DNA from: Allochromatium vinosum DSM 180
GTDB lineage: Bacteria; Pseudomonadota; Gammaproteobacteria; Chromatiales; Chromatiaceae
DNA length: 40,000 nucleotides
Reading direction: 5' to 3'
NCBI RefSeq assembly: GCF_000025485.1
Contig: NC_013851.1
Coordinates: 743,154-783,153, forward strand
Part shown: positions 3,062 through 28,651 of the stretch, in pieces
Numbering within the stretch: the stretch's first letter is position 1
Layout of the letters: every line of letters begins with the position of its first letter
The notes under the pieces: model-generated
Seen by the model: only the letters and a program-made list of their open reading frames with translations
What the model was told of the DNA's origin: nothing
Database searches by the model: none
Translations under genes and position numbers: made by a program

Positions 3062-3174
3062 CGGCTCCTGAGGATCGGTCGCGAGGCGAAAGCCCGAAGT
3101 TTACAGAAAATAGCCAAGTCGCGCCGGTCGTGGTATGCAATGCCGCCCGAAACAATCAACCTGGACAGGATTTC

Positions 3175-7432: not shown

Positions 7433-7434
7433 AC

Positions 7435-8061
7435 ATGACTGCCGAAGCCAACGCCATTGTATTCATCGTCGACGACGACCAGGCCATGCGCACCTCGCTG
7501 CAATGGCTGATCGAGTCGACCGGGATGTCGGTCAAGACCTATGACTCGGCCGATGCCTTCCTGGCCGACTATTATCCCGGCCGTGCCGGCTGCCTGCTGC
7601 TGGACGTGCGCATGCCGGGCATGAGCGGTCTGGAGCTGCAAGCCTATCTGGCGCGCGAGGGGTTCCGGATCCCGGTCATCCTCATCACCGGGCATGGCGA
7701 CGTGGCCATGGCGGTGCGCGCCATGAAAGCCGGAGCCATGGACTTCATCGAAAAGCCCTTCCATGACGAGGATCTGTTGCGCAGCCTCCGCAACGCGCTC
7801 GACCATGATCAGAAGACGCGGGCCAATCGTCTGGCGCGTGCCGACATCGCCATGCGTCTGGCCGAGCTGACGCCGCGCGAGCACGAGGTCATGGCCATGG
7901 TCACGGACGGCAAGTCGAACAAGGAGATCGCCGCCGCGCTCGGGGTGAGCGCCAAGACGGTCGAGGCGCATCGCGCGCGGGTGATGGAGAAGATGCGCGC
8001 CGAGTCGCTGGCCGAGCTGGTGCGCATGGCGCTGATCGCCGCGCCTGAGGCGTTGGTCTGA
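7435..8061 (+). CDS. FixJ/LuxR-family response regulator (REC + HTH)
   Basis: MTAEANAIVFIVDDD..LLLDVRMPGMSG..KAGA receiver motifs, plus the LuxR-type HTH LTPREHEVMAMVTDGKSNKEIAAALGVSAKTVEAHRARVMEKM. Confidence 0.92.
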   Translation: MTAEANAIVFIVDDDQAMRTSLQWLIESTGMSVKTYDSADAFLADYYPGRAGCLLLDVRMPGMSGLELQAYLAREGFRIPVILITGHGDVAMAVRAMKAGAMDFIEKPFHDEDLLRSLRNALDHDQKTRANRLARADIAMRLAELTPREHEVMAMVTDGKSNKEIAAALGVSAKTVEAHRARVMEKMRAESLAELVRMALIAAPEALV

Positions 8062-9371
8062 GTGCCGGGCCGGCGCGCGATCGGTTAGGGTAGCGCATAC
8101 GAGAGCTGCACCCACAGGGTGCGCTCGTCCACCAGCGGGTAGTCCTCGTCGTAGGTCAGCGCCGGCGCGGGCGATCGGACCGTCTCGCCCAGCAGATTGG
8201 TCAACCCGAGGCGCAGATCTAGCCCCTGGGCGCCGACGTTGAACCAGCTGAGCGTGAGCGTCACAGTGTCGTAGCCGGCCAGATCGCTTCGGGAGTCATC
8301 GCTCGCGCGCGCGGTCCCCGACATGATTCCAGCGTCCGGCCAGCAACACGTCAGGAGCCAGGTAATAGAACAGGCTCAGGTTGCCCAGCCAGTTCGCGGC
8401 CCCCGGAATCGGTCCGCCGGTCTCGTAATTCAGGGTGTCGGCGTAGCTCAGGTTGGCTTGCAGCTTGAACCGGCGTCCAAACGCTTGTAGCCACTCGAGC
8501 TCGACGCCTTGCGTGCGCGCTTCGCCGAGGTTCACCCAGCTGCTTCCGCTCGCGGTGATCAGGTCGTACAGCCTGGAGTAGTAGGCCGAAGCGCGCCCGA
8601 CCGTATCGGCACGCCGGAAGATGTAGGCGAGTTCCGCCGTGCGGGTGGTTTCCGGATCGCGAGCCGTCTCGATCACAGGCAGAAAACTCTGGATATGGCG
8701 CTGGAGCAGGGAGGGCGGGAAAAAGGCGCTCGCGACTTGCGCCTTGAGCACATGCTGATCCGTTACGCGCCAGACGGCGGCCAGACGGGGGGAGACATTG
8801 TCGCCCACGTCGCTATAGGCGTCATAGCGCACGCCCAGGGTCAGGTCGAGATCGGGGCGGGCAGACCATTGATCCTGGAAAACGACACTCCGGATGGTGC
8901 GCGACGCCTCCGGGTCGATGAAGCCGAGTTCGCCTGAGTAACGGCGCATGAACGGCAGCGGTTCCAGGGTGAGCAGGTCTATATTGAAAGCCCACCAGGC
9001 ATCGAGCATTTTGTCTTCGGCGACACTGACTTCGAAGCGCATCCGGTGATCCGTCCAGCCCTCCCAATCGAGCGCGGCGTCCAGCTGGATGCGGTTCGAA
9101 TGGGTATGGAGCTTTTGGCGCGAATCCTCCGGCATGATGGCACCGATGCCCAGAGCCGGCAAACCGGCCGGAGCCAGGCGCTGATCGGAATCCAGCCAAC
9201 CCTCATGCCAATGCACCTTCAACTCGGCACGCGATTGATCGCTCAACGAGAACGCATAGCCGGCCTGAATGACCGACTTCGTCTGTGCGATTCCTTCGTC
9301 TCCCCATTGCATGGGACCGGGCAAGATATCGATCGCGCCGAAGAAGGGGTCTTTTTGCGTCGTCTGATATT

Positions 9372-10977
9372 TTGGACTTTGGACAAAGCATCCTGCCAGC
9401 CAGCAAAAATCGTTCGCTCACATACAGTTGGAGTAGACAAGTCCCCTGCAGAGGAGAGCGAACGATGACCACTTCCATGTTGAAAGATAGCCTGGAATCG
9501 CTCCAGCATTTCCGTCAACGCCTCTACGAGCACCTTGGCGCGCGCCGTGACGCCAGCCTCAATCTACTCGATAGCCTGTGCGCCAACACTCAGGCGCGTT
9601 CGGTGGTCGAGCTGAGTTTGAACCCGGCCTTCGAGCGCGATTACACCAGCCTCTACGCCGCGATCGAGGCGTTCACGCCGGAGCCGACGGCGCGCGATCC
9701 GTCCCCGTCGACGGGGTTGTCGGCCTTGGTGTCTGAACAGATTCCGGCGCCTTCGCCAGCGCGTCCATTCTGGCTGTTGGGGGTGGACACCACGCCGAAT
9801 CCACGCCCGTTCGCCGCGACCTTGGCCGATCGTGGGGTGGTCTACCAGCCCAATCCGGCTCCGGGCAACAAACCGATCGCTGTTGGGCATCACTATTCGG
9901 TGGTGGCCGCCTTGCCGGAACGCTCCCGCTGCCATCCTCCGTGGGTCGTACCGCTCCAGGCGCGGCGCGTGGCCAGCAACACCACCGCCACCGCCGTGGC
10001 GGCCTCACAGATGGCCGCTGTGCTGGCCGATCCCGCCCAACCCTATGCGACGGCGTTGAGCGTGCAGGTGGCCGACTCCCACTACAGCCACGCGGCGTAT
10101 CTGCATGCGCTCAGTGCCTTCTCCAATCATGTCGTCATCGCCCGTAGCGCCGGCAACCGCGTCTACTCTCGCGCCCCGCCCGCCACCGACGGCGCGTGCG
10201 GGCATCCGATCTGGTATGGCGAGGCCTTTCGCCTCGCCGACCCCGAGACCTGGGGGAGTCCCTGCCAGAGCGCCGAATGGCCTGATCAGACCGCCTCCGG
10301 ACGGGCCATTCGCCTCACACTGGAGCGCTGGGACGACCTGTTGATGCGCGGACATCGTGACAGCCCGATGCAGGACCACCCCTTCGATGTGGTCCGTTGC
10401 CGTGTCTTCGACGCCCAGACCGGGCGCGCGCTCTTCAAGCGCCCACTCTGGCTGATCGTGATGGGCCAACGCCGCGCCGAACTGTCCCTGCAACAGATTG
10501 AACAGGCCTACCGCCAACGCTTCGATCTGGAGCACTTCTTCCGCTTCGGCAAACACCCCCTGCTCCTCGATCGCTTTCAAACCCCCGACCTCACCCACGA
10601 AGAGCACTGGTGGCCGCTCGTCTGCCTGGCCTATGTCCAGTTATGGCTCGCCGCCCCGCTGGCCAGCGATCTGCCCAGACCTTGGGAGCGTTTCCTCCCC
10701 AAACCGCTCGCCGACACCCGCCTCTCACCCGCGCGTGTGCAGCGCGACTTCGCACGCCTTATTCGTCAGATCGGCACACCGGCCCGCGCCACCAAACGCC
10801 GGGGTATCTCCCCAGGCCGGGTCACAGGGACGCCAGGCCAGAGACGGGCACGACTCCCGATCGTCTTCAAGCGCCAACCGAGGCTCACCGCGACGGCTTG
10901 ATCGGATGCATACCACGACACGTTTCAAGAAAGCCTACTGGGCGTCGGGAAGGAGCGTGTTTTTGTCCAAAATCCAG
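9372..10977 (+). mobile_element. IS4-family insertion sequence (about 1.6 kb)
   Basis: Imperfect terminal inverted repeats TTGGACTTTGGACAAAG (left) and CTGGATTTTGGACAAAA (right, reverse complement). 7-bp direct repeat TGATATT at 9365-9371 and 10978-10984. Single transposase ORF. Confidence 0.8.
9465..10901 (+). CDS. IS4-type DDE transposase
   Basis: 478 aa from ATG 9465 (GAGGAG upstream). The C-terminal motif YRQRFDLEHFFRFGK fits the Y-x2-R-x3-E-x6-K signature of IS4-type transposases. Confidence 0.8.
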   Translation: MTTSMLKDSLESLQHFRQRLYEHLGARRDASLNLLDSLCANTQARSVVELSLNPAFERDYTSLYAAIEAFTPEPTARDPSPSTGLSALVSEQIPAPSPARPFWLLGVDTTPNPRPFAATLADRGVVYQPNPAPGNKPIAVGHHYSVVAALPERSRCHPPWVVPLQARRVASNTTATAVAASQMAAVLADPAQPYATALSVQVADSHYSHAAYLHALSAFSNHVVIARSAGNRVYSRAPPATDGACGHPIWYGEAFRLADPETWGSPCQSAEWPDQTASGRAIRLTLERWDDLLMRGHRDSPMQDHPFDVVRCRVFDAQTGRALFKRPLWLIVMGQRRAELSLQQIEQAYRQRFDLEHFFRFGKHPLLLDRFQTPDLTHEEHWWPLVCLAYVQLWLAAPLASDLPRPWERFLPKPLADTRLSPARVQRDFARLIRQIGTPARATKRRGISPGRVTGTPGQRRARLPIVFKRQPRLTATA

Positions 10978-13623: not shown

Positions 13624-16600
13624 CGGCTCGTCCCCGCGAGCGCGGGGAACGGGATTCCTGGATGAGCCTTGTTTCGGTCCCAATCGGTTCATCCCCGCGA
13701 GCGCGGGGAACGGTGGGCGTCGACGCGATCGCGCCATTCGGTGTCCGGTTCATCCCCGCGAGCGCGGGGAACGGCGCACCCAGCCGAGGATGTATCGAGA
13801 AAAATCCGGTTCATCCCCGCGAGCGCGGGGAACGGCGCCAAGCGCCCACGGTCGGCCACATCTGGAACGGTTCATCCCCGCGAGCGCGGGGAACGGGGAA
13901 CCAAGATCCTCCGTGACGCGGACCCCGAAGGTTCATCCCCGCGAGCGCGGGGAACGGCCGGCGCGGGACTCGGCTCCACATCGATGGGGCGGTTCATCCC
14001 CGCGAGCGCGGGGAACGGTCGGTGCTGGACTCGGGAATATTCAGCGCGGTCGGTTCATCCCCGCGAGCGCGGGGAACGGTGCAGAGCGGTCACTGATTCT
14101 GGAACAGAGGGCGGTTCATCCCCGCGAGCGCGGGGAACGGTTCAGCGCGGTCTTGAACGCCTCGAATGTGATCGGTTCATCCCCGCGAGCGCGGGGAACG
14201 GGTGTACACCACCTTTTCTAAGTAAAACAAGCACGGTTCATCCCCGCGAGCGCGGGGAACGGTATTGTCAGACCCATCAGAAATAGACCATAGCCGGTTC
14301 ATCCCCGCGAGCGCGGGGAACGGCTCGACAGCAAGCGCTTCCTCTTCCAGCAGGACGGTTCATCCCCGCGAGCGCGGGGAACGGGACGGCAGGATAGTAC
14401 GATGCGCGATTTCGTCCGGTTCATCCCCGCGAGCGCGGGGAACGGCTGTGATGCGTCGTTTTTTATTCCTGATTTTACGGTTCATCCCCGCGAGCGCGGG
14501 GAACGGAGGTCAGAGCCGCGCAGGGCCAAATACGCGCGCGGTTCATCCCCGCGAGCGCGGGGAACGGGCGGCATCGGTGCCGTAGCCGGCCTCCAGCGCC
14601 GGTTCATCCCCGCGAGCGCGGGGAACGGGACATCACGCCGCCGATCTGCGTGCCGTCGAGCGGTTCATCCCCGCGAGCGCGGGGAACGGGGTCTGACGAA
14701 TGGTTTGAGGCCCGCTGCGGACGGTTCATCCCCGCGAGCGCGGGGAACGGCGCGCCAATTTGCACCGCGCAACGCCGGACGCCGGTTCATCCCCGCGAGC
14801 GCGGGGAACGGCCCCTTACGCGGCTTGGACGTATCCTCACAGCCGGTTCATCCCCGCGAGCGCGGGGAACGGTTATAGCGCGATGTGGCTCCAACGGCAT
14901 CGAGCGGTTCATCCCCGCGAGCGCGGGGAACGGTCGGACTGGGATTTGGGGATAAGGTCAAGAGGCGGTTCATCCCCGCGAGCGCGGGGAACGGAAGAGC
15001 CAGAAATCAAGGCCTAAATGCCGGTGCGGTTCATCCCCGCGAGCGCGGGGAACGGCAACCTGCGTCTAATCCTGGAGAATGACCCCGCGGTTCATCCCCG
15101 CGAGCGCGGGGAACGGGCGCCCTGGCCCGATTCCGGAGCCAGGCACCGACGGTTCATCCCCGCGAGCGCGGGGAACGGGTCATGCGCCGTCGGCACAGAC
15201 GAGAACGCTACGGTTCATCCCCGCGAGCGCGGGGAACGGGCGAGCGGTGCGCGGGTGCCGGTCTTGGTCGCCGGTTCATCCCCGCGAGCGCGGGGAACGG
15301 CAACTCTACGTTTGCAATTCGATTGCGCAATTCGGTTCATCCCCGCGAGCGCGGGGAACGGTATCTGTGAGGCCACTAGTCAACGACTAATCGCGGTTCA
15401 TCCCCGCGAGCGCGGGGAACGGGAGGTATTCATTCATTTTTGAATCGATCTGACCGGTTCATCCCCGCGAGCGCGGGGAACGGTTTTCTCGCTCATTGGT
15501 CGCCTCGTGACGCATCGGTTCATCCCCGCGAGCGCGGGGAACGGTTGTTCGCGGCCCTGCTCAAGAATGCGGGCCACGGTTCATCCCCGCGAGCGCGGGG
15601 AACGGTCTACATCGCCATGAAGGGCGCTAACATCCTGCGGTTCATCCCCGCGAGCGCGGGGAACGGCCGGACATGGATTACAGCGCACGGCGCAGCCACG
15701 GTTCATCCCCGCGAGCGCGGGGAACGGAGCCGTCTGCTGGGCCTGGGCGGTCTCAGGGGCGGTTCATCCCCGCGAGCGCGGGGAACGGTGAGCGGGAAAT
15801 TGGGTCACGGTGTCGCCGGACGGTTCATCCCCGCGAGCGCGGGGAACGGATTCGCGATCGGGCGCAAGAGGAGGCTGAGACCGGTTCATCCCCGCGAGCG
15901 CGGGGAACGGGCCCCGGATCTGGCCATGCAGCCGTATGCCTACGGTTCATCCCCGCGAGCGCGGGGAACGGATCACCTGCTCGGGTTCTGCGATTCCCCC
16001 ACCCGGTTCATCCCCGCGAGCGCGGGGAACGGCAGCCGCCCGCCGAAGGATTGATACAGGATAACGGTTCATCCCCGCGAGCGCGGGGAACGGTCCTGTT
16101 CCTCGTGGCTGGCGATGGCTGTGGCCGGTTCATCCCCGCGAGCGCGGGGAACGGAACGCCCTACAGCTCGCGCGGCAGAACGAGATCGGTTCATCCCCGC
16201 GAGCGCGGGGAACGGGAGGCCCTGCCTGCGTATCACGGTGGGCAGGGCGGTTCATCCCCGCGAGCGCGGGGAACGGGTGCCTTCGCCCGTCCAGCCGGTC
16301 CAGCCATGCGGTTCATCCCCGCGAGCGCGGGGAACGGAGCCGGGATCTTGACACCGCATTTGAGCAGATCGGTTCATCCCCGCGAGCGCGGGGAACGGGC
16401 GATAAAGCGCTTGTTCGCGCTGTTCGATACCGGTTCATCCCCGCGAGCGCGGGGAACGGTCACCCTGCGCTTCCTGATCCTGGAGTAAGGCCGGTTCATC
16501 CCCGCGAGCGCGGGGAACGGACAAACGAGGGCGCGGATACCGACCGCTGGATCGGTTCATCCCCGCGAGCGCGGGGAACGGCCGGGTCTTCAAACGTAGT

Positions 16601-19206
16601 GGAGCCAATAACACGGTTCATCCCCGCGAGCGCGGGGAACGGTCAGCCATGTCGGTCGTCAGATCCTGCAAATTCGGTTCATCCCCGCGAGCGCGGGGAA
16701 CGGCCGGGTCTTCAAACGTAGTGGAGCCAATAACACGGTTCATCCCCGCGAGCGCGGGGAACGGGTATTTGATGCGGTCGAATACCTATTCAATAAAGGT
16801 TCATCCCCGCGAGCGCGGGGAACGGACCTCTGAGCCGGGGTTAATGGTGCTCATGGCCGGTTCATCCCCGCGAGCGCGGGGAACGGACGGCACGCAGCGA
16901 GACATCTGCCTCCAGCACCGGTTCATCCCCGCGAGCGCGGGGAACGGCGGTAGGTCTCGTCGTCGAGACCCAGATCCTTCGGTTCATCCCCGCGAGCGCG
17001 GGGAACGGCCACGTATAGGAAGCGCGAAAATCAGGGCGCGCGGTTCATCCCCGCGAGCGCGGGGAACGGATGTTCGTGGTTTAGTGGGTAGGCATATTCA
17101 CCGGTTCATCCCCGCGAGCGCGGGGAACGGACCGTGGATCCGGTCGGACGCTGGCGATAGACCGGTTCATCCCCGCGAGCGCGGGGAACGGCCGCCCAGA
17201 CCGTCCAGGAGGCTCCTGGCGGCCGGTTCATCCCCGCGAGCGCGGGGAACGGGCTGAATCCCCGGATGATGGGGCGCGGGTCGCCGGTTCATCCCCGCGA
17301 GCGCGGGGAACGGACGCCGAACGGCTCTGGGCGTGCTCGGGTCGCCGGTTCATCCCCGCGAGCGCGGGGAACGGTTCACCGGAATCGGGAAAACGTCGGG
17401 ATCGACCGGTTCATCCCCGCGAGCGCGGGGAACGGGATCAGAGTAATCATGCGAGTGACGCCAACCGCGGTTCATCCCCGCGAGCGCGGGGAACGGTGTC
17501 TTATATCTCTAATTCGCAGTCCATTATGCGGTTCATCCCCGCGAGCGCGGGGAACGGACTTTGATATCCTGTCTTTATCATTAAAGAACCGGTTCATCCC
17601 CGCGAGCGCGGGGAACGGACGGCACGCAGCGAGACATCTGCCTCCAGCACCGGTTCATCCCCGCGAGCGCGGGGAACGGCGAGGACTGCAAGTCCTGGCT
17701 GCGCTCGCCGACGGTTCATCCCCGCGAGCGCGGGGAACGGGCAAGGTCCAGAGCACGAAAGAAATTAGGCGGCGGTTCATCCCCGCGAGCGCGGGGAACG
17801 GGAAATCCATTTCGGGCGAATCCAACGGGGCGTCGGTTCATCCCCGCGAGCGCGGGGAACGGAGCGATTTTTTCGATTCACTGCCGACTGTTTACGGTTC
17901 ATCCCCGCGAGCGCGGGGAACGGGGCAGCGAGTTCCTCGACGAGATGGTGCGCACCGGTTCATCCCCGCGAGCGCGGGGAACGGAACAAGGCTGATGCGA
18001 CCCGCGCGAAAGCGTTCGGTTCATCCCCGCGAGCGCGGGGAACGGTCGAGCAACCGCAGCGCGTTCGGGAACTGCGTCGGTTCATCCCCGCGAGCGCGGG
18101 GAACGGGGTGGCGCTGCTGTGCTATGACGAGCTGACGCACGGTTCATCCCCGCGAGCGCGGGGAACGGTGTCATTCCTCCCGCCCGGCGCAGTCATAAAG
18201 CGGTTCATCCCCGCGAGCGCGGGGAACGGCGGAGCAAGGCCGCAGTAGCCGCGACGGCGAGCGGTTCATCCCCGCGAGCGCGGGGAACGGACCGAATCCC
18301 CGACGACCCCAGGATCCCAAGACGGTTCATCCCCGCGAGCGCGGGGAACGGCGGCTGTCATCGCATTTATGGGTCTCAAGCGGCGGTTCATCCCCGCGAG
18401 CGCGGGGAACGGGTACGGACGCAGCGACTCTTGGTGGCGCTGTGCGGTTCATCCCCGCGAGCGCGGGGAACGGTTGTATCTATCTGAGTAGGTGTTCCAA
18501 TGAACCGGTTCATCCCCGCGAGCGCGGGGAACGGCTGTCCTGATGTCGGCGACTCGGGACTCTGAACGGTTCATCCCCGCGAGCGCGGGGAACGGCTAAA
18601 AGCATCCCGAGGGAGCGTATAAGGCCGCGGTTCATCCCCGCGAGCGCGGGGAACGGAGCGTCAGCCGCTCCGCGATGGCTAGTCCAGGCGGTTCATCCCC
18701 GCGAGCGCGGGGAACGGGCGCCGGGCGTGCGATCGATCTCGTCAAATATCGGTTCATCCCCGCGAGCGCGGGGAACGGCTCCCCAAACCACCGCCAGAAG
18801 TTCCTCACCCCGGTTCATCCCCGCGAGCGCGGGGAACGGGCCAACAATCCAGCCACCATCACTAGCGCTCGCGGTTCATCCCCGCGAGCGCGGGGAACGG
18901 TTCCCAGGTTTGGCGTGTTTTTCCCTGGCTTTCGGTTCATCCCCGCGAGCGCGGGGAACGGGGGGCGGGCGTCTGTAGATTGGGCCGCGTCAGCGGTTCA
19001 TCCCCGCGAGCGCGGGGAACGGGTTTACCGACAAGCCCCCGGACATGCGAATCAACGGTTCATCCCCGCGAGCGCGGGGAACGGGCGTGTTTTTCCCCGG
19101 CTCTCTTCGGCGTGCACGGTTCATCCCCGCGAGCGCGGGGAACGGGGAGTTCTGCCAATAATTGTGGTGGAACCTGTCGGTTCATCCCCGCGAGCGCGGG
19201 GAACGG
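13624..19206 (-). CRISPR. Type I-E CRISPR array, 92 repeats / 91 spacers
   Basis: 29-bp repeat CGGTTCATCCCCGCGAGCGCGGGGAACGG on the plus strand. Its transcribed form CCGTTCCCCGCGCTCGCGGGGATGAACCG closely resembles the E. coli I-E repeat. 88 spacers of 32 nt and 3 of 33 nt. Degenerate terminal repeat at 13624-13652 (CGGCTCGTCC...). Leader and cas2 lie on the 19207 side, so transcription is on the minus strand. Confidence 0.98.
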
Positions 19207-19308
19207 ACTTCCCATACTTGCCTGATCTAGAAAAAGAAATCAGACGCTGAGAAATCTACCAACAAAATGCCTCTTTTCAAAGGGGCACGATTTTGATTGT
19301 CAAAGAAC
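19207..19308 (-). promoter_or_regulatory. CRISPR leader (AT-rich) with candidate promoter TTGAAA-16-TAGATT
   Basis: 102-bp AT-rich segment between the cas2 stop and the first repeat. Minus-strand TTGAAA (19275-19280) and TAGATT (19253-19258) are 16 nt apart. The promoter assignment is tentative. Confidence 0.6.
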
Positions 19309-20554: not shown

Positions 20555-20767
20555 TCAGGCCGCGATCTCGATGTAGTCGACCTGACTGGTCGGCGTTGGC
20601 ACCGGCAAGCCATCTTCTCGCAGACCTTCCAGATGAAACGCGATCGCTTCCCGAATCTCCCGCTCGGTCTCCTCCAGGGTGCGCCCGGTAGCGATGCACC
20701 CTGGCAGATCGGGGACATAGGCCGAGTAGTTATGCTCTGCTCGTTCGATCACGATGGCGTAACGCAT
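20555..20767 (-). CDS. hicB: HicB-family antitoxin-like protein (short form, no DNA-binding domain)
   Basis: 70 aa from ATG 20767. MRYAIVIERAEHNYSAYVPDLPGCIATGRTLEETEREIREAIAFHLEGL is the HicB/UPF0150 N-terminal fold pattern. Inserted between cas6e and cas1. Confidence 0.8.
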   Translation of the reverse strand: MRYAIVIERAEHNYSAYVPDLPGCIATGRTLEETEREIREAIAFHLEGLREDGLPVPTPTSQVDYIEIAA

Positions 20768-20778
20768 TGTCGCGGCCC

Positions 20779-20849
20779 TCATTTCCAACCGGCTTGTTTG
20801 TAATACTGCTCACCGTGCCTGGAGCCAAGTCGTCGCTCGACTTGCCCGG
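20779..20849 (-). pseudogene. HicA toxin C-terminal remnant (truncated and frameshifted)
   Basis: Directly after the cas6e stop, two frames together read PGKSSDDLAPGTVSS / YYKQAGWK*. This resembles the HicA C-terminus (..GKDLKPGTLRSILKQAGL). The stop is 11 nt before the hicB ATG. No N-terminal part exists. Confidence 0.45.
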
Positions 20850-21479
20850 TCATGAGGTAGCACGACGCACCAGCAGCAGTCCGCAGCCGAACGCCTTAGC
20901 GGGACCAAGGCCGTTTTCCAGTAATGCGACTAGCGCATTCGGATCAAGGACGGTCAAGAGACCCTCGAAGGTAGCGCACAGGATCTTTCCGCCTCGGTTG
21001 GCCTTACGAAAGTAGAGAGGCGGATGCGGTGTGACAGCGACAGCCTCGACTTCGGCGACATCCTTGAGCCGCTGTATCAGCCAGGATTTTTGGGTTTCCT
21101 CAGTGATCAGCGGAACACGGCAGGTATCGCGTGTCTTCCGTGGTTTGGTGTCTGCCTGTCGATCTTTGATGGTCTTGATCGGGTTCGCCGTCAGGATAAA
21201 GGCGAGCCGTTGGCCTTGCGAGGGTTGCGGGTTGATCTCTCGGCTACCGATGAGGTTCAGGGTGGCCTCGGGTTGTGGCATACACCTGGATTGAATCAGA
21301 ACCTGGGCCGGTCGGCCGGGCCGATGGTCCTCCACCCGGAACAGGAATCCCCGACGCGGCTGATCCGGCGTTCGGCGTGATTCCGCCGCTTCGCCGGGAA
21401 AGAGTCGCCATATGGCGCGGTGCATGTCATAGGGGTTGCGGGCCTCGGACCAAGGAATCTCAGCGCGACTCAGGATCAT
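20850..21479 (-). CDS. cas6e: Cas6e (CasE) crRNA endoribonuclease
   Basis: 209 aa. MILSRAEIPW..NPYDMHRAIWRLFP..FLFRVE..VLIQS and the C-terminal GPAKAFGCGLLLV are typical of Cas6e. ATGA overlap with cas5e. Confidence 0.92.
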   Translation of the reverse strand: MILSRAEIPWSEARNPYDMHRAIWRLFPGEAAESRRTPDQPRRGFLFRVEDHRPGRPAQVLIQSRCMPQPEATLNLIGSREINPQPSQGQRLAFILTANPIKTIKDRQADTKPRKTRDTCRVPLITEETQKSWLIQRLKDVAEVEAVAVTPHPPLYFRKANRGGKILCATFEGLLTVLDPNALVALLENGLGPAKAFGCGLLLVRRATS

Positions 21480-22159
21480 GAAGATTCCTCCTCGCGATGC
21501 AGATAGAGGCGGCGAGTAGCAAATTGGCGATGGCGACCGTAGCGGGGAACGTCGCGAATCCAGGTTGGTTGATCCGAGACGAGTTCGTCTTCGCTGTAGA
21601 TGAGTCCGCCATGGGGCGGAAACTGCGCTAATGCCGCTTTCGCGTCATCGGCTTCAATGCAATCCGGGCGTTCGAGCAGGGGGCGGCCCAGGGGGCAGGA
21701 GCGTCGTCCCAAAACGGGCGTGAAGCGCGGTTGCCGCAGAGATTCGGCGATCCGCGCCAGACTGAAACTTGCGTCTGGTCTGGAGCCGATAGCCACGGCG
21801 AAGGCGGCATCGAATAGATATTCCCTATGCGACTGGATCGGGAATTTATTCGTCGATCCGTCGACCTTCCGGGCATCGAGCACGGTGTGATAGTCAGACA
21901 GCTTGGTATGGCGCTTGGGCATCAGGCGATCGACGCCGGGACGCGGAGCGCCCGTGTCGAGGCGGACTGTGAATGCGACGCTCTCGGCGAGTGCATCGAG
22001 ACTCGGGGTGTCGGATCGGTCCAGCCCGAGACAGGCGCCCAGGAGTCCAAGCAGACCGCTACGGGTTGGAAACGGGTTGCTGGGACGATAGTCCTCGAAG
22101 GTGTGTGTGCCCCAAGCCTGCATGGGGCCATCGAGTCGAAGGATCAGGTAGCTCGGCAT
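21476..22159 (-). CDS. cas5e: Cas5e (CasD)
   Basis: Start at ATG 22159 gives MPSYLILRLDGPMQAWGTHTFEDYRPS..PTRSGLLGLLGACLG, the typical Cas5e N-terminus. Confidence 0.92.
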   Translation of the reverse strand: MPSYLILRLDGPMQAWGTHTFEDYRPSNPFPTRSGLLGLLGACLGLDRSDTPSLDALAESVAFTVRLDTGAPRPGVDRLMPKRHTKLSDYHTVLDARKVDGSTNKFPIQSHREYLFDAAFAVAIGSRPDASFSLARIAESLRQPRFTPVLGRRSCPLGRPLLERPDCIEADDAKAALAQFPPHGGLIYSEDELVSDQPTWIRDVPRYGRHRQFATRRLYLHREEESS

Positions 22160-22170
22160 GTCGGTACGCC

Positions 22171-23352
22171 TCACGCCCGACCATCGTTGGCAAGCCACTG
22201 TTCGAGGTCTGCGATCGAGGTCAGAACCTCTTGATCACCCAGCTTGATTCCTCCCCGGAGTGCAAAGGCGCGCGCCTGTTCGTCGAGTCCGTAGGCGCTG
22301 TTGACCCGTGACCAATAGTCGGCGAGCGCGGTGATGGATGGCTGGAGAAAACCTCCAATCTTGCGCTCACGTTCGATGGGTTCCTCGAAGGCGTTGGCAA
22401 GAGAGACGGGCTGATCGGCGAGGCTGACGATCACGAAGTCAGCCAGGTTGTGTGCCGCGAATGACTGCTGCTTGGCGGAAGGCACCACGGTGGCCAGCAG
22501 ATGCAAGACATGGCGAGCGATATCGAGCGCGCGCGCGCGCGACTCCGTCGTTTGCTCGGCATTTATGTTGGCCAGCAAGCCAAGATTAAACTGAAGCTGA
22601 CGCAGATTGAGGCTGGCATAGCGGTAGAAGACGCCCGCCGAGAATTGCTGGGTATTCAGGTGTCCGGCGCCGGTTTCGCCGGCATCCAGGGTCAGATCGT
22701 CGACAGCAGTGAACCAGTCGATGTCCTGAGGCTCCACCGTGTGGGTCGTGATGGCGTGAGCAACAGCGAGCGCCCCATCGACCGGATAGATGAGTTCGGA
22801 ATTGGCCATGCGTCCGGAGAGCGCGACATCCAGGTCGATGCGGGTGCGTTGCTCGCGCTCCAGACGCTGGATTTCGGCCTTCATGTACTCGATACGGCCT
22901 TTCTCCGGTTTGCCGGCGGCTTCGAGCAGGATCTGTTTGATTCCCTCGATTTCAGCGCAACTGAATGGAATGATCTGGGTTTCGATATGATCGCTTTTCT
23001 TGTCGCGTTCATACTTACCAATCTCGTCGATCTTGGTCTTTCCCTCGAAAATAGCCGCCGCATACAGCGCGCACTTCTCGATGGCCGTGGTCTGCTCAGC
23101 CGATTCGGCCGATGCGCTCAACTCGTCGGCCATTTTATCGAACAGCCGGCGCGTGCGCTGCGACTTACTAATAAAGTACCTGGCGTAATAGTCGCTATAT
23201 CTGATCGCGCGCTTGAGTGATTGACTGGAAATGCGCACCCGAGTCTTACCGCCGAAGATGGCGGTTTTCTGCATGTTCATGTCGTCCCGGTTGAGGCAGG
23301 ACGGACTGTGTGAAATGAGGACGTGGAAATTGACGAAATTCCTGGTGTTCAT
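22171..23352 (-). CDS. cas7e: Cas7e (CasC) Cascade backbone subunit
   Basis: 393 aa. FHVLISHSPSCLNRDDMNMQKTAIFGGKTRVRISSQSLKRAIR is almost identical in pattern to E. coli CasC. Confidence 0.96.
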   Translation of the reverse strand: MNTRNFVNFHVLISHSPSCLNRDDMNMQKTAIFGGKTRVRISSQSLKRAIRYSDYYARYFISKSQRTRRLFDKMADELSASAESAEQTTAIEKCALYAAAIFEGKTKIDEIGKYERDKKSDHIETQIIPFSCAEIEGIKQILLEAAGKPEKGRIEYMKAEIQRLEREQRTRIDLDVALSGRMANSELIYPVDGALAVAHAITTHTVEPQDIDWFTAVDDLTLDAGETGAGHLNTQQFSAGVFYRYASLNLRQLQFNLGLLANINAEQTTESRARALDIARHVLHLLATVVPSAKQQSFAAHNLADFVIVSLADQPVSLANAFEEPIERERKIGGFLQPSITALADYWSRVNSAYGLDEQARAFALRGGIKLGDQEVLTSIADLEQWLANDGRA

Positions 23353-23811
23353 TCACTTGTCTCCCTGGTCGATCTTGTGGAGGGCGATGTAGTAGCCTTC
23401 GACGAGGCGGCGTTTGCTGGATCCTGTCTTTTTACTGCCCCAGTACCAAAGGAGCGGAGCCAGATCTAGCCAGCCGACGGCTGGATGCAGTTGCATCACG
23501 AGCCGTCTCAAGGCGATGAGATCGTCCGGCGGATTGGCGCGGGCAATTTGCATGATCCGCTCTTCGGAAATGCTGTTGGCGCATAGAGTCATGAAGCCGG
23601 TGTTGCTGTTCAGTTCTGGGCACCAGGGCAGAAAAAACGCGAGCAGTGTTTCCTGATTCGAAGGTCTGCTTCCTGGAAACAGATGGTAGAGTCCAGGCAG
23701 ATCCCTCAAGTCGTCCGGCTCGGCGGCTCGGCGCAGTCCGGCCTTCGCTCCGTTGGGTAGCCGTTCGAAGCGAGCATGGTATTCGGCGAAATCCGGCGCT
23801 TCGGTGCTCAT
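23353..23811 (-). CDS. cse2: Cse2 (Cas11e, CasB) small subunit
   Basis: 152-aa ORF between cas8e and cas7e with Cse2-like size and basic helical composition. The ATG overlaps the cas8e C-terminal frame stop (ATGA). Confidence 0.85.
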   Translation of the reverse strand: MSTEAPDFAEYHARFERLPNGAKAGLRRAAEPDDLRDLPGLYHLFPGSRPSNQETLLAFFLPWCPELNSNTGFMTLCANSISEERIMQIARANPPDDLIALRRLVMQLHPAVGWLDLAPLLWYWGSKKTGSSKRRLVEGYYIALHKIDQGDK

Positions 23812-25330
23812 TGGCTCTCCTTGAGTTTCTTGAGATCAGCATTCAGGCTGCGGCGTGCCCAAGCGATGATTGGGATCAACTCAGGTTTCATTGTGTAAGG
23901 TTCGGTCATAGCATCGAAGATATCGCGGCAGTCAGCAGCAAGCGCATCGATATAAGCCGCGCGATTCTCTTTCCATTGCATGAACGTAGTCGGTCTGGAC
24001 AAAGTTTCAATGATTTTGCCTTCGGTCCGAGAGTAGAAGATTCGTTCTCCGACGTCCTGTATAGGAGATCCAATTCCTGGAAGCATTTTTTCTTATGCCC
24101 TTTGGACGCGAAAGAGAGCTTGTCCTTTAGACTCTCTTTGGCTTTTATGCCCAGCGCTACCAAATCTTTTAATCGACTGCCGTCTTCTTCGCTCCAGCCC
24201 GCTGCCAGAGAAAGCATCTCATGACGGCGCTCTGTGACCGATGCTTTGTTATTGCGGTAGCCGCCTATGATCAAAGTAAGTGGTTGGGGCTTTTCGAGCG
24301 CTGTTACTGCCATTGATTTAGCTTGAGCGACCGGAGTCGCTGGCCGACTGCCTTCTCCTTTCGGGCCATTGATGCGTAGGACCATCTCTGTGAGGCGTGT
24401 CCAGGCCGGAGCCTCTGTGGTGAAGGAGGCAAATTTCATCTCCAACGCACCCTTCTTGAGGCTCGACTGGAGTACGCCATGCGGATGCGGCCAAGTGCCT
24501 TCCAGCGTGAAGTTGAATTTCTCCTTCCGAAAGCCTGTGTAGAGCGGGCCAGCCTCAATGCCGAGCAGGTCGCAAGGTCCGGATTCGCGGCTACCAACCA
24601 GCTCGACATGGGCCGGCTGCCAGAACAGTCCGCGAGCGAGTCCGATTTGGTGAGCATGGATCGTCTCTTTTGACCGAATCGGTTCGATCCAGGTCGGCAG
24701 ATCCTGACTCAGGTCGTGCTGCCAATCCGGGAAATCCGTGCGGATGAACTCCGGGGTCAGCACATTGCACCAGATCCGTTTGCGCAGATTGCGGCCATCG
24801 ACGAGTGTCGTGATAGGAGCGATACCACGCAGACTGCCCTTAAAACCGCCGCCGAAGCTGGGGCAATTGGTCGCTTGATGGAAGAGCGCGATGGCGGCAA
24901 CCGGCGCTGAAAGCACCGAGACCTCACCAGGCGCGTTGAAAAAGGCATGATTGGTCCCCTCCGGCAGGCCGATCAGGAGTTTTTGGATGGGCGTGACGTC
25001 TTTGGCAACGACTCCGCGTGTTTGCATGAAAGGCTGCGTCGGGTGATCCAGGTCGAACCATTCCAGGCAGGGCGAAATGCCCTCGGTGAATTCGTCTGGT
25101 GTGAGCGGTATATCGATGCGGTCCAGCAGGACATCATCCTCCGGGGGCAGGAACATGATCTGCGTCATGCAGATCAGGAGTTGCAGACAGGCCAGTTCCA
25201 GGTCGTCTCGGGGAAGACTGATCTGCCAGTCTTCGTCTTCGCAGAGCAGTTCCTGATAGGTGAGCAACCGAAACGTGCCACTTCCGCCGTGGGCTCGCAC
25301 CGGGATCCAGGGTGTCTTCAACAGATCCAT
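23808..25330 (-). pseudogene. cas8e: Cas8e (Cse1, CasA) large subunit, reading frame broken at an A6 run
   Basis: N-terminal frame 25330->24092 (MDLLKTPWIPVRAHGG.., 421 good residues). The C-terminal 92 aa are in the -1 frame from 24086 to 23808 and are coupled to cse2. One extra A in the run at 24086-24091 would give about 513 aa. Confidence 0.85.
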
Positions 25331-25385
25331 AATCCTCATCCTGAACACGACTGGCGCCGCAGTTGGTGCAGACGCCTTGGTTTTT

Positions 25386-25535
25386 CTAGAGTCGAAGCAG
25401 GAACAGTGTTGCTATAAAGAACAGGAAAATCAGCAACATCAGCATCGCAATCAGTTTGAGTGCGACTATCCCATCCGGGCCCAGTTTGCCGAGTTCGACC
25501 ACCAGATCTTTCAAGGCTTTGATCGTCTCAAACAT
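25386..25535 (-). CDS. Hypothetical 49-aa tail-anchored hydrophobic peptide (candidate CRISPR-repressed toxin)
   Basis: ATG 25535 with GGAG 6 nt upstream. MFETIKALKDLVVELGKLGPDGIVALKLIAMLMLLIFLFFIATLFLLRL. About 25 hydrophobic C-terminal residues; AT-rich codons; first ORF downstream of the 25571-25598 promoter. Confidence 0.5.
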   Translation of the reverse strand: MFETIKALKDLVVELGKLGPDGIVALKLIAMLMLLIFLFFIATLFLLRL

Positions 25536-25570
25536 TCTGAGCTCCACCAAATCGAGTACGAATGTCGCTG

Positions 25571-25598
25571 AGTATAGTCGGCGCGTTTCAACTTGCAA
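25571..25598 (-). promoter_or_regulatory. Sigma-70-type promoter TTGCAA-16 nt-TATACT reading toward the small ORF and cas8e
   Basis: Minus strand -35 TTGCAA (25593-25598) and -10 TATACT (25571-25576). About 30 nt of 5' UTR with a GGAG SD follows. Confidence 0.55.
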
Positions 25599-25610
25599 GA
25601 GTTAAAGTGT
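25597..25610 (+). promoter_or_regulatory. Predicted Cascade binding site: AAG PAM + seed match to the mini-CRISPR pseudo-spacer
   Basis: AAG|AGTTAAAGTGT versus pseudo-spacer AGTTACAGTGT. 10/11 identical, the only mismatch at position 6. Overlaps the -35 hexamer of the minus-strand promoter. Confidence 0.6.
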
Positions 25611-25638
25611 TAATCTCATCGTGTGCTATTCTTTGACA

Positions 25639-25728
25639 GAATTCCCGGCTTAGCTTGGGATGACCCAAGTTACAGTGTCCTGTGACATCGAAATTGGGTT
25701 CGTTCCCCGCATTAGCGGGGTGCCTCCG
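25639..25728 (+). ncRNA. CreA/CreR-like mini-CRISPR (psiR1 - 32-nt pseudo-spacer - psiR2), inverted relative to the main array
   Basis: psiR1 25639-25667 is 16/29 identical to the repeat and psiR2 25700-25728 is 20/29 with an intact CCCCGC/GCGGGG stem. Exact 61-nt period. psiR2 overlaps the cas3 stop codon. Confidence 0.6.
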
Positions 25729-28345
25729 TCGGCGGGTCCATGAGGCCCGCCGTTTCTGCTTTGGCCAAGCCAAGCTCAGTCGTGTAGCAGACTCCTCCAT
25801 CAAGGCTACTCCAGCGTTGTTGGCCGTCGTCATGCATCTTGAGCCGAATGCGGCCATCCTCATCGCGGACGTGGCCCGCAAGCTGCCTGTCGCCCCAACT
25901 GTGCGGTGCGGGAACCGTGTTCAACATGAGCGTTTCAGCTTGGGTGTATTCGTCCATCTGGTCAGGATCTTCGCCGTCCAGCAGGCGACCATCCTCTCGA
26001 GTCAGCAGAACGGATAAGCTCATTTCGCCATCTCGTGTGAGCGAGGTCAGGCGCTCTTCGTCGTCGCGAAATTTGCTCAGGTTCATGGTCGTGAGACGAT
26101 GTGCTTTCTTTTCTGCCTCGCTTTGGTCGTCCCGCCACGCCAGATGTTTGCCATAGACGGTCCCAGGCTCATCATCCCAGGGAGCTTCTCCATAGACAGG
26201 CTCGATCCATTCCCGATAGGCTGCTGGAAAATGGATCTGCTTGTGCCGGGCCAGCAGGAACTCGGTTCGCCACAGCAGGCGTGCATCGCCGTAGATCAGT
26301 TCATGCAGACCGTAATCGTCCGTTTCGACCGACAGGACGGTGCAGGTGGGAACCTGGAAATCATCGGGACGTTTGCGCGAGTGTCTGTGCAAGCGTCCGA
26401 GACGCTGGAATAGGAGGTCGACCGGGCAGAGCTGAGTGATGAGCCAATCGAAGTCCAGATCGAGGCTCTGCTCGATGACCTGGGTCGCGACCAGGATGCG
26501 TCCTTGAGTCCGTTCGGCGTCACGTCCGTAGTGCTCGATCACCCGCTGCTCGATACGCTGTCGGTCCTGGAGCCTGAAGCGGGCATGGAAGAGATCGACG
26601 GGCACCTGGGCATTCTTGTGGAGCTGAATCCAGAGTTGCTGAGCATCGTCGACCGTGTTCATCACGATGCCAACCAGGGCACCGGATTCGGCTGCGTCGA
26701 TGATACGTTGGATGAGCGGCTCGTCGGGGCAAGCACCGCCCAGTTTGGAGAGGCTGACTTCGATGGTGCGTTGGGCCGGGCGCTCGGTGTCCGGCAAGCT
26801 CAAGGGTGAGTCGGATTCGGATAGCGCGGCCGTATTCCAGATGGCCGGATAATTGGCGACATCCGCGACTGGTTCGTGCCCCCATGATTCCAAAAGCTTG
26901 CCGCGAATGCTGGCGGGCAAGGTCGCCGACAGCAGGATGGCGCTTCCCCCAACCGCCTTCTGGCGCTTGAGCACCTCGATCAGCAGCCCATTCATGTAGG
27001 CATCATAGGCATGCACCTCGTCGACGATCAGAACGGAGCGGTGCAGCCCGAAAGCCCGGACGAAATTGTGTCTGACCGGCAGGACGGACAGCAAGACCTG
27101 ATCGACCGTGCAGACGCCGATCTGTCCCAGGAAGACACGCTTGCGGCTGCTGGCCAGCCAGGCGGCACACTGGACGCCGGCCTCGGTCTCGCCCTGAGCC
27201 GTGCGTTTGGATCCGGCCTCGATAAGCCGTTGGTACGCCTGATTCAGCCGACTATGCCCATGAGCCAGAACCAGATTCGCGCGACCAAAGGCGCTCTTGG
27301 AGAAGGTTTCACAACGTCCAAGCATCGCGTTTGCCGTGGCCTGAGTGGGAAGCGCGAAGACGATCGACTCGGCCAGTCCGGCATCGATCAGGCGCCAGGC
27401 GTAGGCCAATGCCGCTTCGGTCTTGCCGCTGCCCGTGGGAGCTTCAACGATCGTCAGTCCTGGAACAAGCGGCAGATCGTCGATCATGACCTGAGTGCCG
27501 CGCGGATGCTCGTCGGTTTTGAGCAGAGCCGGGATTCCCTGATAGGCCAGCGGCGTGGCGATCAGCCCGAAGTGCCTCAAGATATCGTCGCGTCTGATCT
27601 GCTCCAAGCGTGAATGCAAATAGTCGTTTGGAGAGAGTGCAGGCGGGGCGTAGGCAAAGACGTCGACATTGGAGCCTATCCAGTCGCACAGACTACAGAA
27701 TCCCGCCAGCAGGTTTCGGGCTTCGGTTACGCATGGCGGTGGTGGATCTTCGAGGCTCAACCCAGCCGGGTGGAGGAAGAGATCGGCCGCTTCCTGGATC
27801 CATGCACGGCGCGCATTGGCGTCTTGCTCCAATATAGTCGCTTCGGCATAAGCAGGAAGAGGATCGTCGTTATCCGGGATCTCTCCGTGATGCCCCGTCA
27901 CGGCGGCAAGCCACGAGGACCAAGCTTTCAATGCGTGACGGCTTGCGGGTTTGAACCAACCGCGAAGCTCGGCCATCGACAGACGGTATCCTTCACGGCC
28001 ATGATCGTAGTGTCCGCCCGAGGTATCGATCAGCTTCGTCGAGGCTAGATCGGGCCAGATCTGAGGCAGGATATGGGGGGCTTTGATCTGAAACAGCGCG
28101 TGCAGCTTTCCGATGTCATGGAGTGCGACGAAAAACAGGATCCACGCCAGAAGCCGCTGAATTTCCGCCTCTTCCACGTCAAAGGCAGCCATGAGAGTAC
28201 GGCGGACTGCCGACGAATCTCGCCAAAACGTTGCTGCAATTACTGCTGCATCGAGGGAATGGTAAGCGAAGGGATGCCATTTGTTGGCCCCTTCGACTCC
28301 CGTATCTGCCTTCGCCCAATAACGCCAATAGTCCTTGGATAACAT
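25712..28345 (-). CDS. cas3: Cas3 HD nuclease / SF2 helicase (I-E)
   Basis: Start at ATG 28345 (GGAG 7 nt upstream). HD region ..HPFAYHSLDAA..ALHDIGK.., helicase motifs APTGSGKTEAAL and DEVHAYD, C-terminal domain. 877 aa. Confidence 0.95.
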   Translation of the reverse strand: MLSKDYWRYWAKADTGVEGANKWHPFAYHSLDAAVIAATFWRDSSAVRRTLMAAFDVEEAEIQRLLAWILFFVALHDIGKLHALFQIKAPHILPQIWPDLASTKLIDTSGGHYDHGREGYRLSMAELRGWFKPASRHALKAWSSWLAAVTGHHGEIPDNDDPLPAYAEATILEQDANARRAWIQEAADLFLHPAGLSLEDPPPPCVTEARNLLAGFCSLCDWIGSNVDVFAYAPPALSPNDYLHSRLEQIRRDDILRHFGLIATPLAYQGIPALLKTDEHPRGTQVMIDDLPLVPGLTIVEAPTGSGKTEAALAYAWRLIDAGLAESIVFALPTQATANAMLGRCETFSKSAFGRANLVLAHGHSRLNQAYQRLIEAGSKRTAQGETEAGVQCAAWLASSRKRVFLGQIGVCTVDQVLLSVLPVRHNFVRAFGLHRSVLIVDEVHAYDAYMNGLLIEVLKRQKAVGGSAILLSATLPASIRGKLLESWGHEPVADVANYPAIWNTAALSESDSPLSLPDTERPAQRTIEVSLSKLGGACPDEPLIQRIIDAAESGALVGIVMNTVDDAQQLWIQLHKNAQVPVDLFHARFRLQDRQRIEQRVIEHYGRDAERTQGRILVATQVIEQSLDLDFDWLITQLCPVDLLFQRLGRLHRHSRKRPDDFQVPTCTVLSVETDDYGLHELIYGDARLLWRTEFLLARHKQIHFPAAYREWIEPVYGEAPWDDEPGTVYGKHLAWRDDQSEAEKKAHRLTTMNLSKFRDDEERLTSLTRDGEMSLSVLLTREDGRLLDGEDPDQMDEYTQAETLMLNTVPAPHSWGDRQLAGHVRDEDGRIRLKMHDDGQQRWSSLDGGVCYTTELGLAKAETAGLMDPPTEAPR
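25730..25762 (+). terminator. Candidate intrinsic terminator for the plus-strand mini-CRISPR transcript (antisense, inside the cas3 3' end)
   Basis: 7-bp GC stem CGGCGGG / CCCGCCG (25730-25736 / 25746-25752) followed by TTTCTGCTTT (25753-25762). Confidence 0.45.
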
Positions 28346-28651
28346 GACGGGACTCCGCTTTTCCGTGTCATCAGGAGTCCTGATCATAGACGAAGTGACG
28401 GGCGTTCCGCCAAACCTGGGATGGCGTATTTCGTGTATTGTTTGGGCTTTGTCGCCGTTAGAGTGAAGATGGGCAGTCGGTCAAGGCGCGCTTGATATCG
28501 ATGGATTGTCAGCCGGACGCCCGACTCCTACACTGTGACGCATTCGTGACCCTTCCTGCCTCCGTGCCGAGGCCATGGTTTCTGTCGCGCCTCCCTCACC
28601 GTCGGCCCGACCGGGCCGCAGATCAACCCTCAACGATCAAAACGATCAACC

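Follow-up and report, generated by a model that had tools for sequence, protein, structure and literature searches.

Allochromatium vinosum DSM 180's type I-E CRISPR-Cas locus carries, between cas3 and cse1 (cas8e), a gene of 49 codons that lies first behind a promoter bearing a target for a CRISPR RNA-like (crRNA-like) guide, the guide itself being encoded next to it by a degenerate mini-array. The stretch analysed, here called the window, comprises 40,000 nucleotides (nt; contig NC_013851.1, positions 743,154 to 783,153 of the forward strand), and coordinates are counted from its first letter. The gene is genuine and evolves under purifying selection, and its product is predicted to be a tail-anchored membrane peptide. 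By analogy with the toxins CreT and CreP we read the peptide, tentatively and with a probability of roughly 45%, as a membrane toxin joined to an autoregulatory cassette of the CreR type. The bolder proposition, that a subset of type I-E systems may merge both of the crRNA-like circuits by placing a membrane-toxic peptide and the effector genes under one Cascade-repressed promoter, is one that we hold with less assurance.

The elements of the cassette in the window are as follows.

25386-25535, minus strand: the peptide open reading frame (ORF), 49 codons and a stop, translated as MFETIKALKDLVVELGKLGPDGIVALKLIAMLMLLIFLFFIATLFLLRL.
25542-25545, minus strand: Shine-Dalgarno sequence GGAG, 6 nt before the ATG; purine runs resembling a Shine-Dalgarno sequence are likewise placed in most homologous loci.
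25598-25571, minus strand: sigma-70-type promoter TTGCAA-16-TATACT, the sole such site in 25200-25900, against a mean of 0.1 after shuffling.
25597-25631, plus strand: AAG protospacer-adjacent motif (PAM, 25597-25599) with a protospacer-like target, whose seed (25600-25610) equals positions 1-5 and 7-11 of the pseudo-spacer psiS.
25639-25667, plus strand: degenerate repeat psiR1, 16 of 29 positions identical to the array repeat, with the handle-like ATGACCCA kept.
25668-25699, plus strand: pseudo-spacer psiS of 32 nt, AGTTACAGTGTCCTGTGACATCGAAATTGGGT.
25700-25728, plus strand: degenerate repeat psiR2, 20 of 29 positions identical, with an intact CCCCGC-ATTA-GCGGGG hairpin, overlapping the cas3 stop codon.
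25730-25762, plus strand: terminator-like GC hairpin and T-run, directly 3' of psiR2 and antisense in the last cas3 codons.

An earlier note on this DNA, made from the letters alone, had given the coordinates of the ORF and of the GGAG 6 nt upstream as well as the distance of 55 nt from the peptide stop to the cse1 ATG (25330), and all of these were confirmed. It had also described the ORF as AT-rich with codons unusual for this sequence, which holds for the composition but hardly for the codons. The G+C content is low (0.47 overall, 0.40 at codon positions 1 and 2), mainly because of an amino acid composition rich in Leu, Ile, Phe and Lys, while at third codon positions it stands at 0.63, similar to the 0.64-0.77 of the cas genes, and only two ATA codons are clearly rare (ATA accounts for 7% of the Ile codons in the cas genes). 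A foreign origin of the ORF, considered from codon usage, is unsupported given third positions so like those of the cas genes.

A first protein search with the single peptide sequence returned just two matches, both 94% identical, and related loci were therefore collected by way of Cse1. The 26 type I-E loci taken from genomes with this anchor include those of Allochromatium humboldtianum (97% Cse1 identity), Imhoffiella purpurea (79%) and Thiobacillus together with other beta- and gammaproteobacterial metagenome-assembled genomes (42-68%); in Imhoffiella, at 61% identity, and in a further five loci of greater distance, tblastn with the peptide gave a match just upstream of cse1. A seven-sequence profile run against 5.8 billion proteins drew 42 clusters (90% identity), and an exhaustive hidden Markov model search of 1.84 billion cluster representatives (50% identity) gave 26 representatives at E < 0.001, of 35-70 amino acids (aa) except for two of 275 and 785 aa that match in short repeated stretches only. 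Metagenomes were scanned for homologues with an alignment of a closer subset of the family. Apart from calls at upstream starts of up to 79 aa and the two long multi-stretch matches, homologues are 35-52 aa in length; the family consensus is MVEvIKAiKELvsEvGKvGPtGvAvLALLVALSAIWVLGGK, and source names, where there are any, read 'hypothetical protein'.

Conservation of the ORF as a protein in related I-E loci, for which a check had been proposed, is borne out by the pattern of substitution. Synonymous sites are saturated (proportion of synonymous differences 0.6-0.8, of nonsynonymous differences 0.1-0.5), the ratio of nonsynonymous to synonymous substitution rates (dN/dS) within the peptide subfamily is 0.05-0.2, alignment column entropy is 0.93, 0.56 and 1.44 at codon positions 1, 2 and 3, and the other two frames of the region are full of stops. 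Protein-level conservation moreover extends to loci with about 36-60% Cse1 identity. The ORF had been suspected, as one alternative, of being a spurious frame in the Cascade operon's 5' untranslated region, a suspicion that its shortness, the gene callers that miss it or start it wrongly (70-aa calls from TTG, JGI records) and the lack of database annotation would favour; the reach of the conservation, the coding pattern of substitution and the closed alternative frames refute it, and we give a chance frame next to no probability. The window peptide differs from its relatives at codon 31 (25443-25445), which is Met (ATG) where loci L006, L004, L001 and Imhoffiella (L007) have Arg (AGG or AGA); this R31M comes from one G-to-T change where the hydrophobic helix begins, and the genome that has it also carries a cse1 frameshift described below.

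The peptide had been described from its sequence as an amphipathic N-terminus followed by a hydrophobic tail, and AlphaFold2, the hydrophobic moment and hydropathy all agree. Run on the family alignment, AlphaFold2 gives helices at 2-16 and 20-48 with a mean confidence (pLDDT) of 90, the layout being an amphipathic helix (2-16), a G-K-L-G-P break (G-P-x-G in the family) and a hydrophobic C-terminal helix (20-48). The N-terminal helix, with a hydrophobic moment of 0.48-0.60, is significantly amphipathic, and the best 19-residue hydropathy window reaches 2.0-3.05; the C-terminal helix is predicted to be the transmembrane anchor.

Searches with toxin and hydrophobic-peptide profiles, which the earlier note had proposed, brought no family match above a curated cut-off, the window peptide having no match in Pfam, NCBIfam, PADLOC or PHROGs. 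Pfam gives nothing at E <= 0.01 and at E <= 10 only sub-cut-off matches in a few of 32 members, none of them to KilAC, and PHROGs gives weak, unrelated matches for a few members of the family. An NCBIfam match to PsbH (E = 0.019, 14.5 bits against a cut-off of 65) and a match to IPTL-CTERM (5 of 32 members, best E = 0.0066) were set aside as transmembrane-helix noise, and the best PDB sequence match, a designed helical bundle at E = 0.008, reflects the amphipathic helix only. Foldseek found no match to the AlphaFold2 model in the PDB, Rfam none in the intergenic region, and the searches of viral contigs, phage genomes and plasmids yielded no relatives. The marks of a holin or lysis peptide (holin homology, linkage to an endolysin or a phage) are missing, all contexts examined being type I-E cas loci. 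Searches of published full texts, among them the CreR and mini-array papers, a December 2025 review of CreTA, CreR and CrePA, and preprints of 2024-2026, turned up no account of a small membrane ORF in I-E loci. Judged by sequence, the peptides form a well-defined, previously undescribed family that belongs to no known toxin family.

In the window the promoter at 25598-25571 is the sole candidate, so that the peptide ORF is the first reading frame behind it; the promoter scan and the seed match together uphold the earlier claim that this ORF comes first behind the promoter carrying the pseudo-spacer target. No terminator-like site was found on the minus strand between the peptide and cse1, and there is no other promoter upstream of cse1-cas6e than the targeted one, which would transcribe the peptide gene together with cse1, cse2, cas7, cas5 and cas6e. 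AAG is the canonical type I-E PAM; its complement overlaps the -35 box, and the AAG-flanked match to the psiS seed is the single one in the 40 kb window. The mini-array lies on the plus strand, antisense to the cas genes, which differs from the picture drawn before. A reading on the cas strand, which would take the hairpin at the cas3 stop for psiR1, was rejected, since it is on the opposite strand that a proper handle, a spacer of 32 nt, an AAG target and a downstream terminator are found. The hairpin at 25730-25762 is the probable end of the crRNA-like transcript; no mini-array promoter was recognised, a TTGACA at 25633-25638 on the plus strand having no convincing -10 box and not being conserved. 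The leader RNA of the peptide shows no unusual structure (z = -0.45), and a structured leader that sequesters the Shine-Dalgarno sequence, as in type I toxin mRNAs, is thus unsupported.

The cassette recurs in related loci, whether these were obtained from genomes, from metagenomes or by protein look-up, and wherever the sequence of a peptide locus extends far enough upstream, a mini-array and an AAG target are present, with the single exception of L042. The shared elements are a handle resembling ATGAACCG, a psiS of 32 nt, the psiR2 hairpin and, 51-74 nt upstream of the peptide ATG, a target flanked by AAG. At least 20 distinct seeds occur among the loci, each with its own matching target, and the chance of such a match within about 130 nt in one locus is estimated to be of the order of 10^-6. 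Seed position 6 matches in about a quarter of the loci; in Cascade this position is flipped out and hence expected to be free to vary. Both promoter hexamers are conserved in a six-locus alignment, and an equivalent promoter is found in 19 loci, with a -10 box that ends 24-38 nt before the peptide ATG. In 14 of these 19 the TTG of the -35 box is formed from the PAM complement CTT and a G (25593-25599 in the window), an arrangement in which PAM recognition by Cse1 and recognition of the -35 box by the sigma factor would compete for the same bases. The prediction that the peptide promoter is CRISPR-repressed is, by these sequence comparisons, well supported. Of the earlier note's proposal of a CRISPR-repressed, peptide-type analogue of CreT, the guide-targeted promoter therefore survives, with compensatory seed and target changes in at least 20 loci, while the stand-alone unit does not, the promoter being shared with Cascade.

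Most of 21 loci examined have a GC-rich hairpin 3' of psiR2, with stems that differ and often with a T-rich run behind, which supports both the orientation of the mini-array and an independent transcript; since the hairpin persists while the stems differ, the Cas3 C-terminus (...DPPxxxPR tail) is shaped by RNA elements on the opposite strand. Thirteen loci have no intergenic region, the cas3 stop overlapping (by 14 nt in 12 of them) or nearly abutting the cse1 start, and no peptide; in the 11 of these for which the cas3 start was located, no mini-array and no peptide is found upstream of cas3 either. The remaining Cse1-anchored loci have a gap of at least 200 nt and an antisense mini-array at the cas3 end.

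The peptide comes first among the cistrons behind a sigma-70-type promoter in every locus examined. Its usual place is directly before cse1; where cas3 and cse1 are joined in one operon, it is cas3 that it precedes: in L045-L047 and L052 mini-array, target/promoter and peptide all lie ahead of cas3 as one cassette, with the peptide ending 1 nt before it, and in L045 the targeted promoter heads cas3-cse1 and the following genes. The peptide is therefore tied to the repressed promoter and not to Cse1 specifically. Its stop overlaps the cse1 start (ATGA, GTGA or TTGA) in at least 12 loci, and the Shine-Dalgarno sequence of cse1 is supplied by conserved Gly-Gly-Lys codons (GGAGGxAAA) at the C-terminus of the peptide; the window and its relatives have 13-55 nt between the two genes, and there cse1 has a Shine-Dalgarno sequence of its own, GAGGA. 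In five loci the peptide is missing or damaged.

L008: mini-array and target kept, peptide absent.
L010 (Thiodictyon): mini-array and target kept, just the C-terminal half of the peptide recognisable.
L011: mini-array and target kept, peptide replaced by an unrelated, non-hydrophobic ORF of 38 aa (MNTFIGSGLRLGGWSSERFRRRHPPEWTQSALIWQEAP, 5885-6001).
L012 (Lamprocystis): mini-array and target kept, peptide start out of frame and an internal TGA.
L042: cassette disrupted by a RAYT/IS200-like transposase fragment (2978-3500) in the cas3-cse1 gap, peptide 5' end lost.

The earlier note would have counted an ORF broken or absent in close relatives that keep the promoter and the mini-array against its proposal. 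Loci with a broken or absent ORF exist, but only at a distance: relatives with at least 79% Cse1 identity keep the ORF, and it is farther away that it is interrupted (L012), degenerate (L010) or absent (L008 and L011). What survives of the 3' part of the ORF in L012 still overlaps the cse1 start. The 38-aa ORF of L011 has a strong AAGGAG Shine-Dalgarno sequence, a TGATG overlap with the cse1 ATG and an Arg-rich stretch (AGG, CGA and CGG codons). This cluster of arginine codons recalls the tRNA-sequestering CreT RNAs, as a resemblance only.

Degenerate repeats, the asymmetry of handle and hairpin, the cognate PAM and a seed match at the promoter of the effector genes place the mini-array in the known CreR/CreA class. 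CreR is known from the type I-E system of Salmonella enterica and from types I-B and V-A (10.1101/2023.03.10.532045), and Shmakov et al. reported mini-arrays at cas8 promoters (10.1101/2023.03.03.530964). In S. enterica, CreR represses P_casA about 8.6-fold through an AAG-flanked partial match (10.1101/2023.03.10.532045). The present loci share with CreR a degenerate mini-array between cas3 and casA/cas8e in which the psiR1 handle and psiR2 hairpin are kept, as well as an AAG PAM and a partial match beside the Cascade promoter, the guide thus targeting the promoter of the effector operon, with predicted autorepression of Cascade; it is from the covariation of seed and target and from the Salmonella CreR experiments that we infer repression of the peptide promoter by Cascade. 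What sets them apart from CreR as described is a conserved peptide gene between the repressed promoter and the first cas gene. Neither a small ORF nor a membrane peptide is mentioned in the two papers (10.1101/2023.03.10.532045 and 10.1101/2023.03.03.530964), and the authors of the former stated, as a provisional criterion, that CreR loci show no co-occurrence with a toxin (10.1101/2023.03.10.532045).

A protein toxin under such control is known from the CrePA system of type I-F in Acinetobacter baylyi, in which CreP is encoded in the cas3-csy1 gap behind a CreA-repressed promoter (10.1101/2024.01.05.574328). Here too a protein-coding gene fills the gap between cas3 and the large-subunit gene, its promoter carries a PAM-flanked partial match to the pseudo-spacer of a degenerate two-repeat mini-array, and the proposed logic is derepression upon inhibition of the effector. 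CreP, however, is a soluble KilAC-domain protein of 103 aa, of phage origin, which blocks cell division and has its own promoter, whereas the peptide is a membrane protein of 41-49 aa with no detectable phage homologue and no KilAC, belongs to type I-E, has its promoter (and often its ribosomes) in common with the Cascade genes, and is a putative toxin with a presumed mode of action. As in CreTA and CrePA, a crRNA-like gene of the antitoxin kind lies in the cas locus (plus strand, 25639-25728, and in the same way in more than 20 loci) and a PAM-flanked seed match lies at the regulated promoter. CreTA, found in Haloarcula I-B and in Acinetobacter and Pseudomonas I-F systems, has in common with the present loci an addiction or guard logic (proposed here), a degenerate mini-CRISPR antitoxin and sometimes promoters shared by toxin and cas genes, as in Pseudomonas aeruginosa, where CreT shares promoters with adjacent cas genes (10.1101/2024.10.29.618823). 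In CreTA the toxin is a small RNA, a few codons of which serve to sequester rare tRNAs; in the present family the amino acid sequence is under purifying selection, and the active product is therefore the peptide, unlike the CreT RNA.

Type I toxins such as Hok, TisB, Ldr and Fst are likewise hydrophobic single-helix peptides of less than 60 aa, and many of them depolarise the membrane when overproduced. The size and the predicted transmembrane helix of the peptide are as expected for such a toxin, but there is no match or sequence similarity to the known type I families, the hydrophobic helix is C-terminal and follows a conserved amphipathic helix, and control would be transcriptional, through Cascade. 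No antisense RNA over the peptide mRNA and no promoter-like site on the plus strand across the ORF were found; the mini-array overlaps neither the ORF nor its leader, and the target lies upstream of the -35 box, outside the transcript. Small membrane peptides encoded beside Clostridioides difficile CRISPR arrays are toxic upon overexpression (PMC5961336). The differences from CreP and CreT are thus a membrane peptide, the subtype I-E, a place within an autoregulated effector operon and frequent coupling to the first cas gene.

In the reading that we favour, the first cistron of a type I-E effector operon would be a small tail-anchored peptide of the inner membrane. Cascade with the crRNA-like RNA of the mini-array would bind the AAG-flanked 11-nt seed match at the -35 box and repress the promoter, while seed-only binding would be too short to license Cas3. 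Since the peptide and the Cascade genes share this promoter, Cascade too would be autoregulated through this guide, just as with CreR, and repression would keep the level of the peptide low. If Cascade were lost, mutated or blocked by an anti-CRISPR, the promoter would become fully derepressed and the peptide would accumulate, oligomerise via its amphipathic helix and damage the membrane, with growth arrest or abortive infection as the outcome; failure of Cascade would in this way first boost Cascade and, should that be insufficient, kill or arrest the cell. The small size, the tail-anchored helix and the heptad-like amphipathic helix of the structural model fit an oligomerising, membrane-active toxin, and a patchy distribution with pseudogenisation (L010, L012, L042) is typical of toxin genes.

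Several observations weigh against this reading. No toxin, holin or defence protein known so far proved homologous in the profile libraries or the PDB. Being co-transcribed with Cascade, and in at least 12 loci also coupled to cse1 in translation, the peptide must be made whenever Cascade is; four loci (L008, L010, L011 and L012) keep the mini-array and the target with no intact peptide; and the unrelated ORF in the coupled position of L011 may mean that an upstream ORF as such is what matters. In the window, finally, cse1 has a deletion of 1 nt in a poly-A run at about 24085-24091 (six A against seven in L006 and L004), which, compared with L006, L004 and L001, shifts the frame after about residue 452 and removes about 55 C-terminal residues, leaving a cse1-cse2 gap of 95 nt where relatives have a Cse1 of 507 aa whose gene overlaps cse2 by 4 nt. 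Either the frameshift is real and inactivating or it is a homopolymer sequencing error; in the former case a lethal guard should have fired, yet the peptide is intact. A sequencing error, residual function of Cse1 and the window-specific R31M are possible ways out of this objection.

An intact peptide beside a cse1 that looks frameshifted also speaks for a different function, in which the peptide would be a non-toxic accessory membrane protein, co-expressed with Cascade, that engages a partner through its amphipathic helix on the cytoplasmic side; Cse1, Cas3 or another membrane protein might be tethered or modulated by it, or the entry of phage DNA impeded. Many bacterial small membrane proteins regulate larger ones, the architecture of helix, break and transmembrane segment is common to regulatory micropeptides, the clear purifying selection on the N-terminal helix suggests a specific interaction surface, and the stop/start overlap with cse1 and the placement in the effector operon imply co-production with Cascade in a fixed ratio. 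We nevertheless consider such a role unlikely: its place before cas3 in some loci binds the peptide to the promoter cassette instead of to one Cas protein, no fusion to a Cas protein occurs among the matches of the profile searches, none of the 11 related I-E loci that lack a mini-array has it, and L008, L010, L011 and L012 can dispense with it. A smaller probability still goes to the ORF being mainly a leader, whose translation feeds ribosomes to the first cas start (cse1 or cas3) or unmasks it, the product itself doing little. The leader peptide named as an alternative by the earlier note may form part of the function. The NTGA overlaps in at least 12 loci, the Gly-Gly-Lys codons serving as the Shine-Dalgarno sequence of cse1, the strongly initiated 38-aa ORF in the same coupled position of L011 and the remnant in L012, which has retained only the 3' part overlapping the cse1 start, are what such a leader would predict. 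A hydrophobic transmembrane product is, on the other hand, unnecessary for coupling; amino acid conservation over saturated synonymous sites covers the whole peptide, as far as an N-terminal helix that lies some 100 nt away from the junction; between the ORF and a cse1 with its own Shine-Dalgarno sequence there are 13-55 nt in the window and its relatives; and the structure of the leader RNA is ordinary (z = -0.45).

The I-E locus around the cassette is complete and lies on the minus strand of the window, with cas3, cse1/cas8e, cse2, cas7, cas5, cas6e, cas1 and cas2 recognised by Pfam. The genes of the Cascade operon downstream of the peptide, and cas3 upstream of it, are the following.

25712-28387, minus strand: cas3, HD nuclease-helicase (Pfam PF18019, PF22590, PF00270).
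23906-25330, minus strand: cse1/cas8e (Pfam PF09481), ATG at 25330.
23353-23811, minus strand: cse2 (Pfam).
22171-23352, minus strand: cas7 (Pfam).
21476-22198, minus strand: cas5 (Pfam).
20850-21479, minus strand: cas6e (Pfam).

The CRISPR array comprises about 91 repeats at 13624-19210, the transcribed form of the repeat being CCGTTCCCCGCGCTCGCGGGGATGAACCG. Between cas6e and cas1 lies an ORF of 77 codons (MRYAIVIERAEHNYSAYVPDLPGCIATGRTLEE..., 20555-20788, minus strand) that resembles a HicB-type antitoxin; no HicA partner was seen for it, and a gene of 70 aa with PF15919 occupies the same position in L001, L033 and L034. In the metagenomic relative L001 cas3 is present as two ORFs of 447 and 444 aa (7256-9890), which suggests a frameshift, with the peptide and the Cascade genes intact. 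The distant peptide-bearing I-E locus L048 has small DUF4160 and DUF2442 genes between cse2 and cas7 (2544-3070), a pair often regarded as toxin-antitoxin-like.

It was only recently that crRNA-like guides were discovered through which a CRISPR effector represses either its own genes (CreR) or a toxin (CreTA, CrePA), and to our knowledge the autoregulatory form alone is known from type I-E, the best-studied subtype, its authors having left open the existence of hidden toxins. What is newly defined here is a conserved, unannotated family of small proteins that occurs, across at least 20 I-E loci of independent divergence, solely as the leading gene behind promoters of this predicted repressed kind and never without the cassette, apart from the truncated copy in L042. 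Were the peptide toxic, a guard against both loss and anti-CRISPRs would be built into I-E systems, one promoter could serve autoregulation and addiction alike, and the compact module might help in screening for AcrIE proteins or in making kill switches. Should the two circuits indeed be merged, the peptide would be the missing toxin partner of the I-E 'CreR' elements and the first peptide-type, membrane-acting toxin repressed by CRISPR; a non-toxic peptide would be the first case of a small membrane protein with a functional tie to Cascade. In either case the family makes the question of toxin partners of the I-E 'CreR' elements directly testable, by a few simple experiments.

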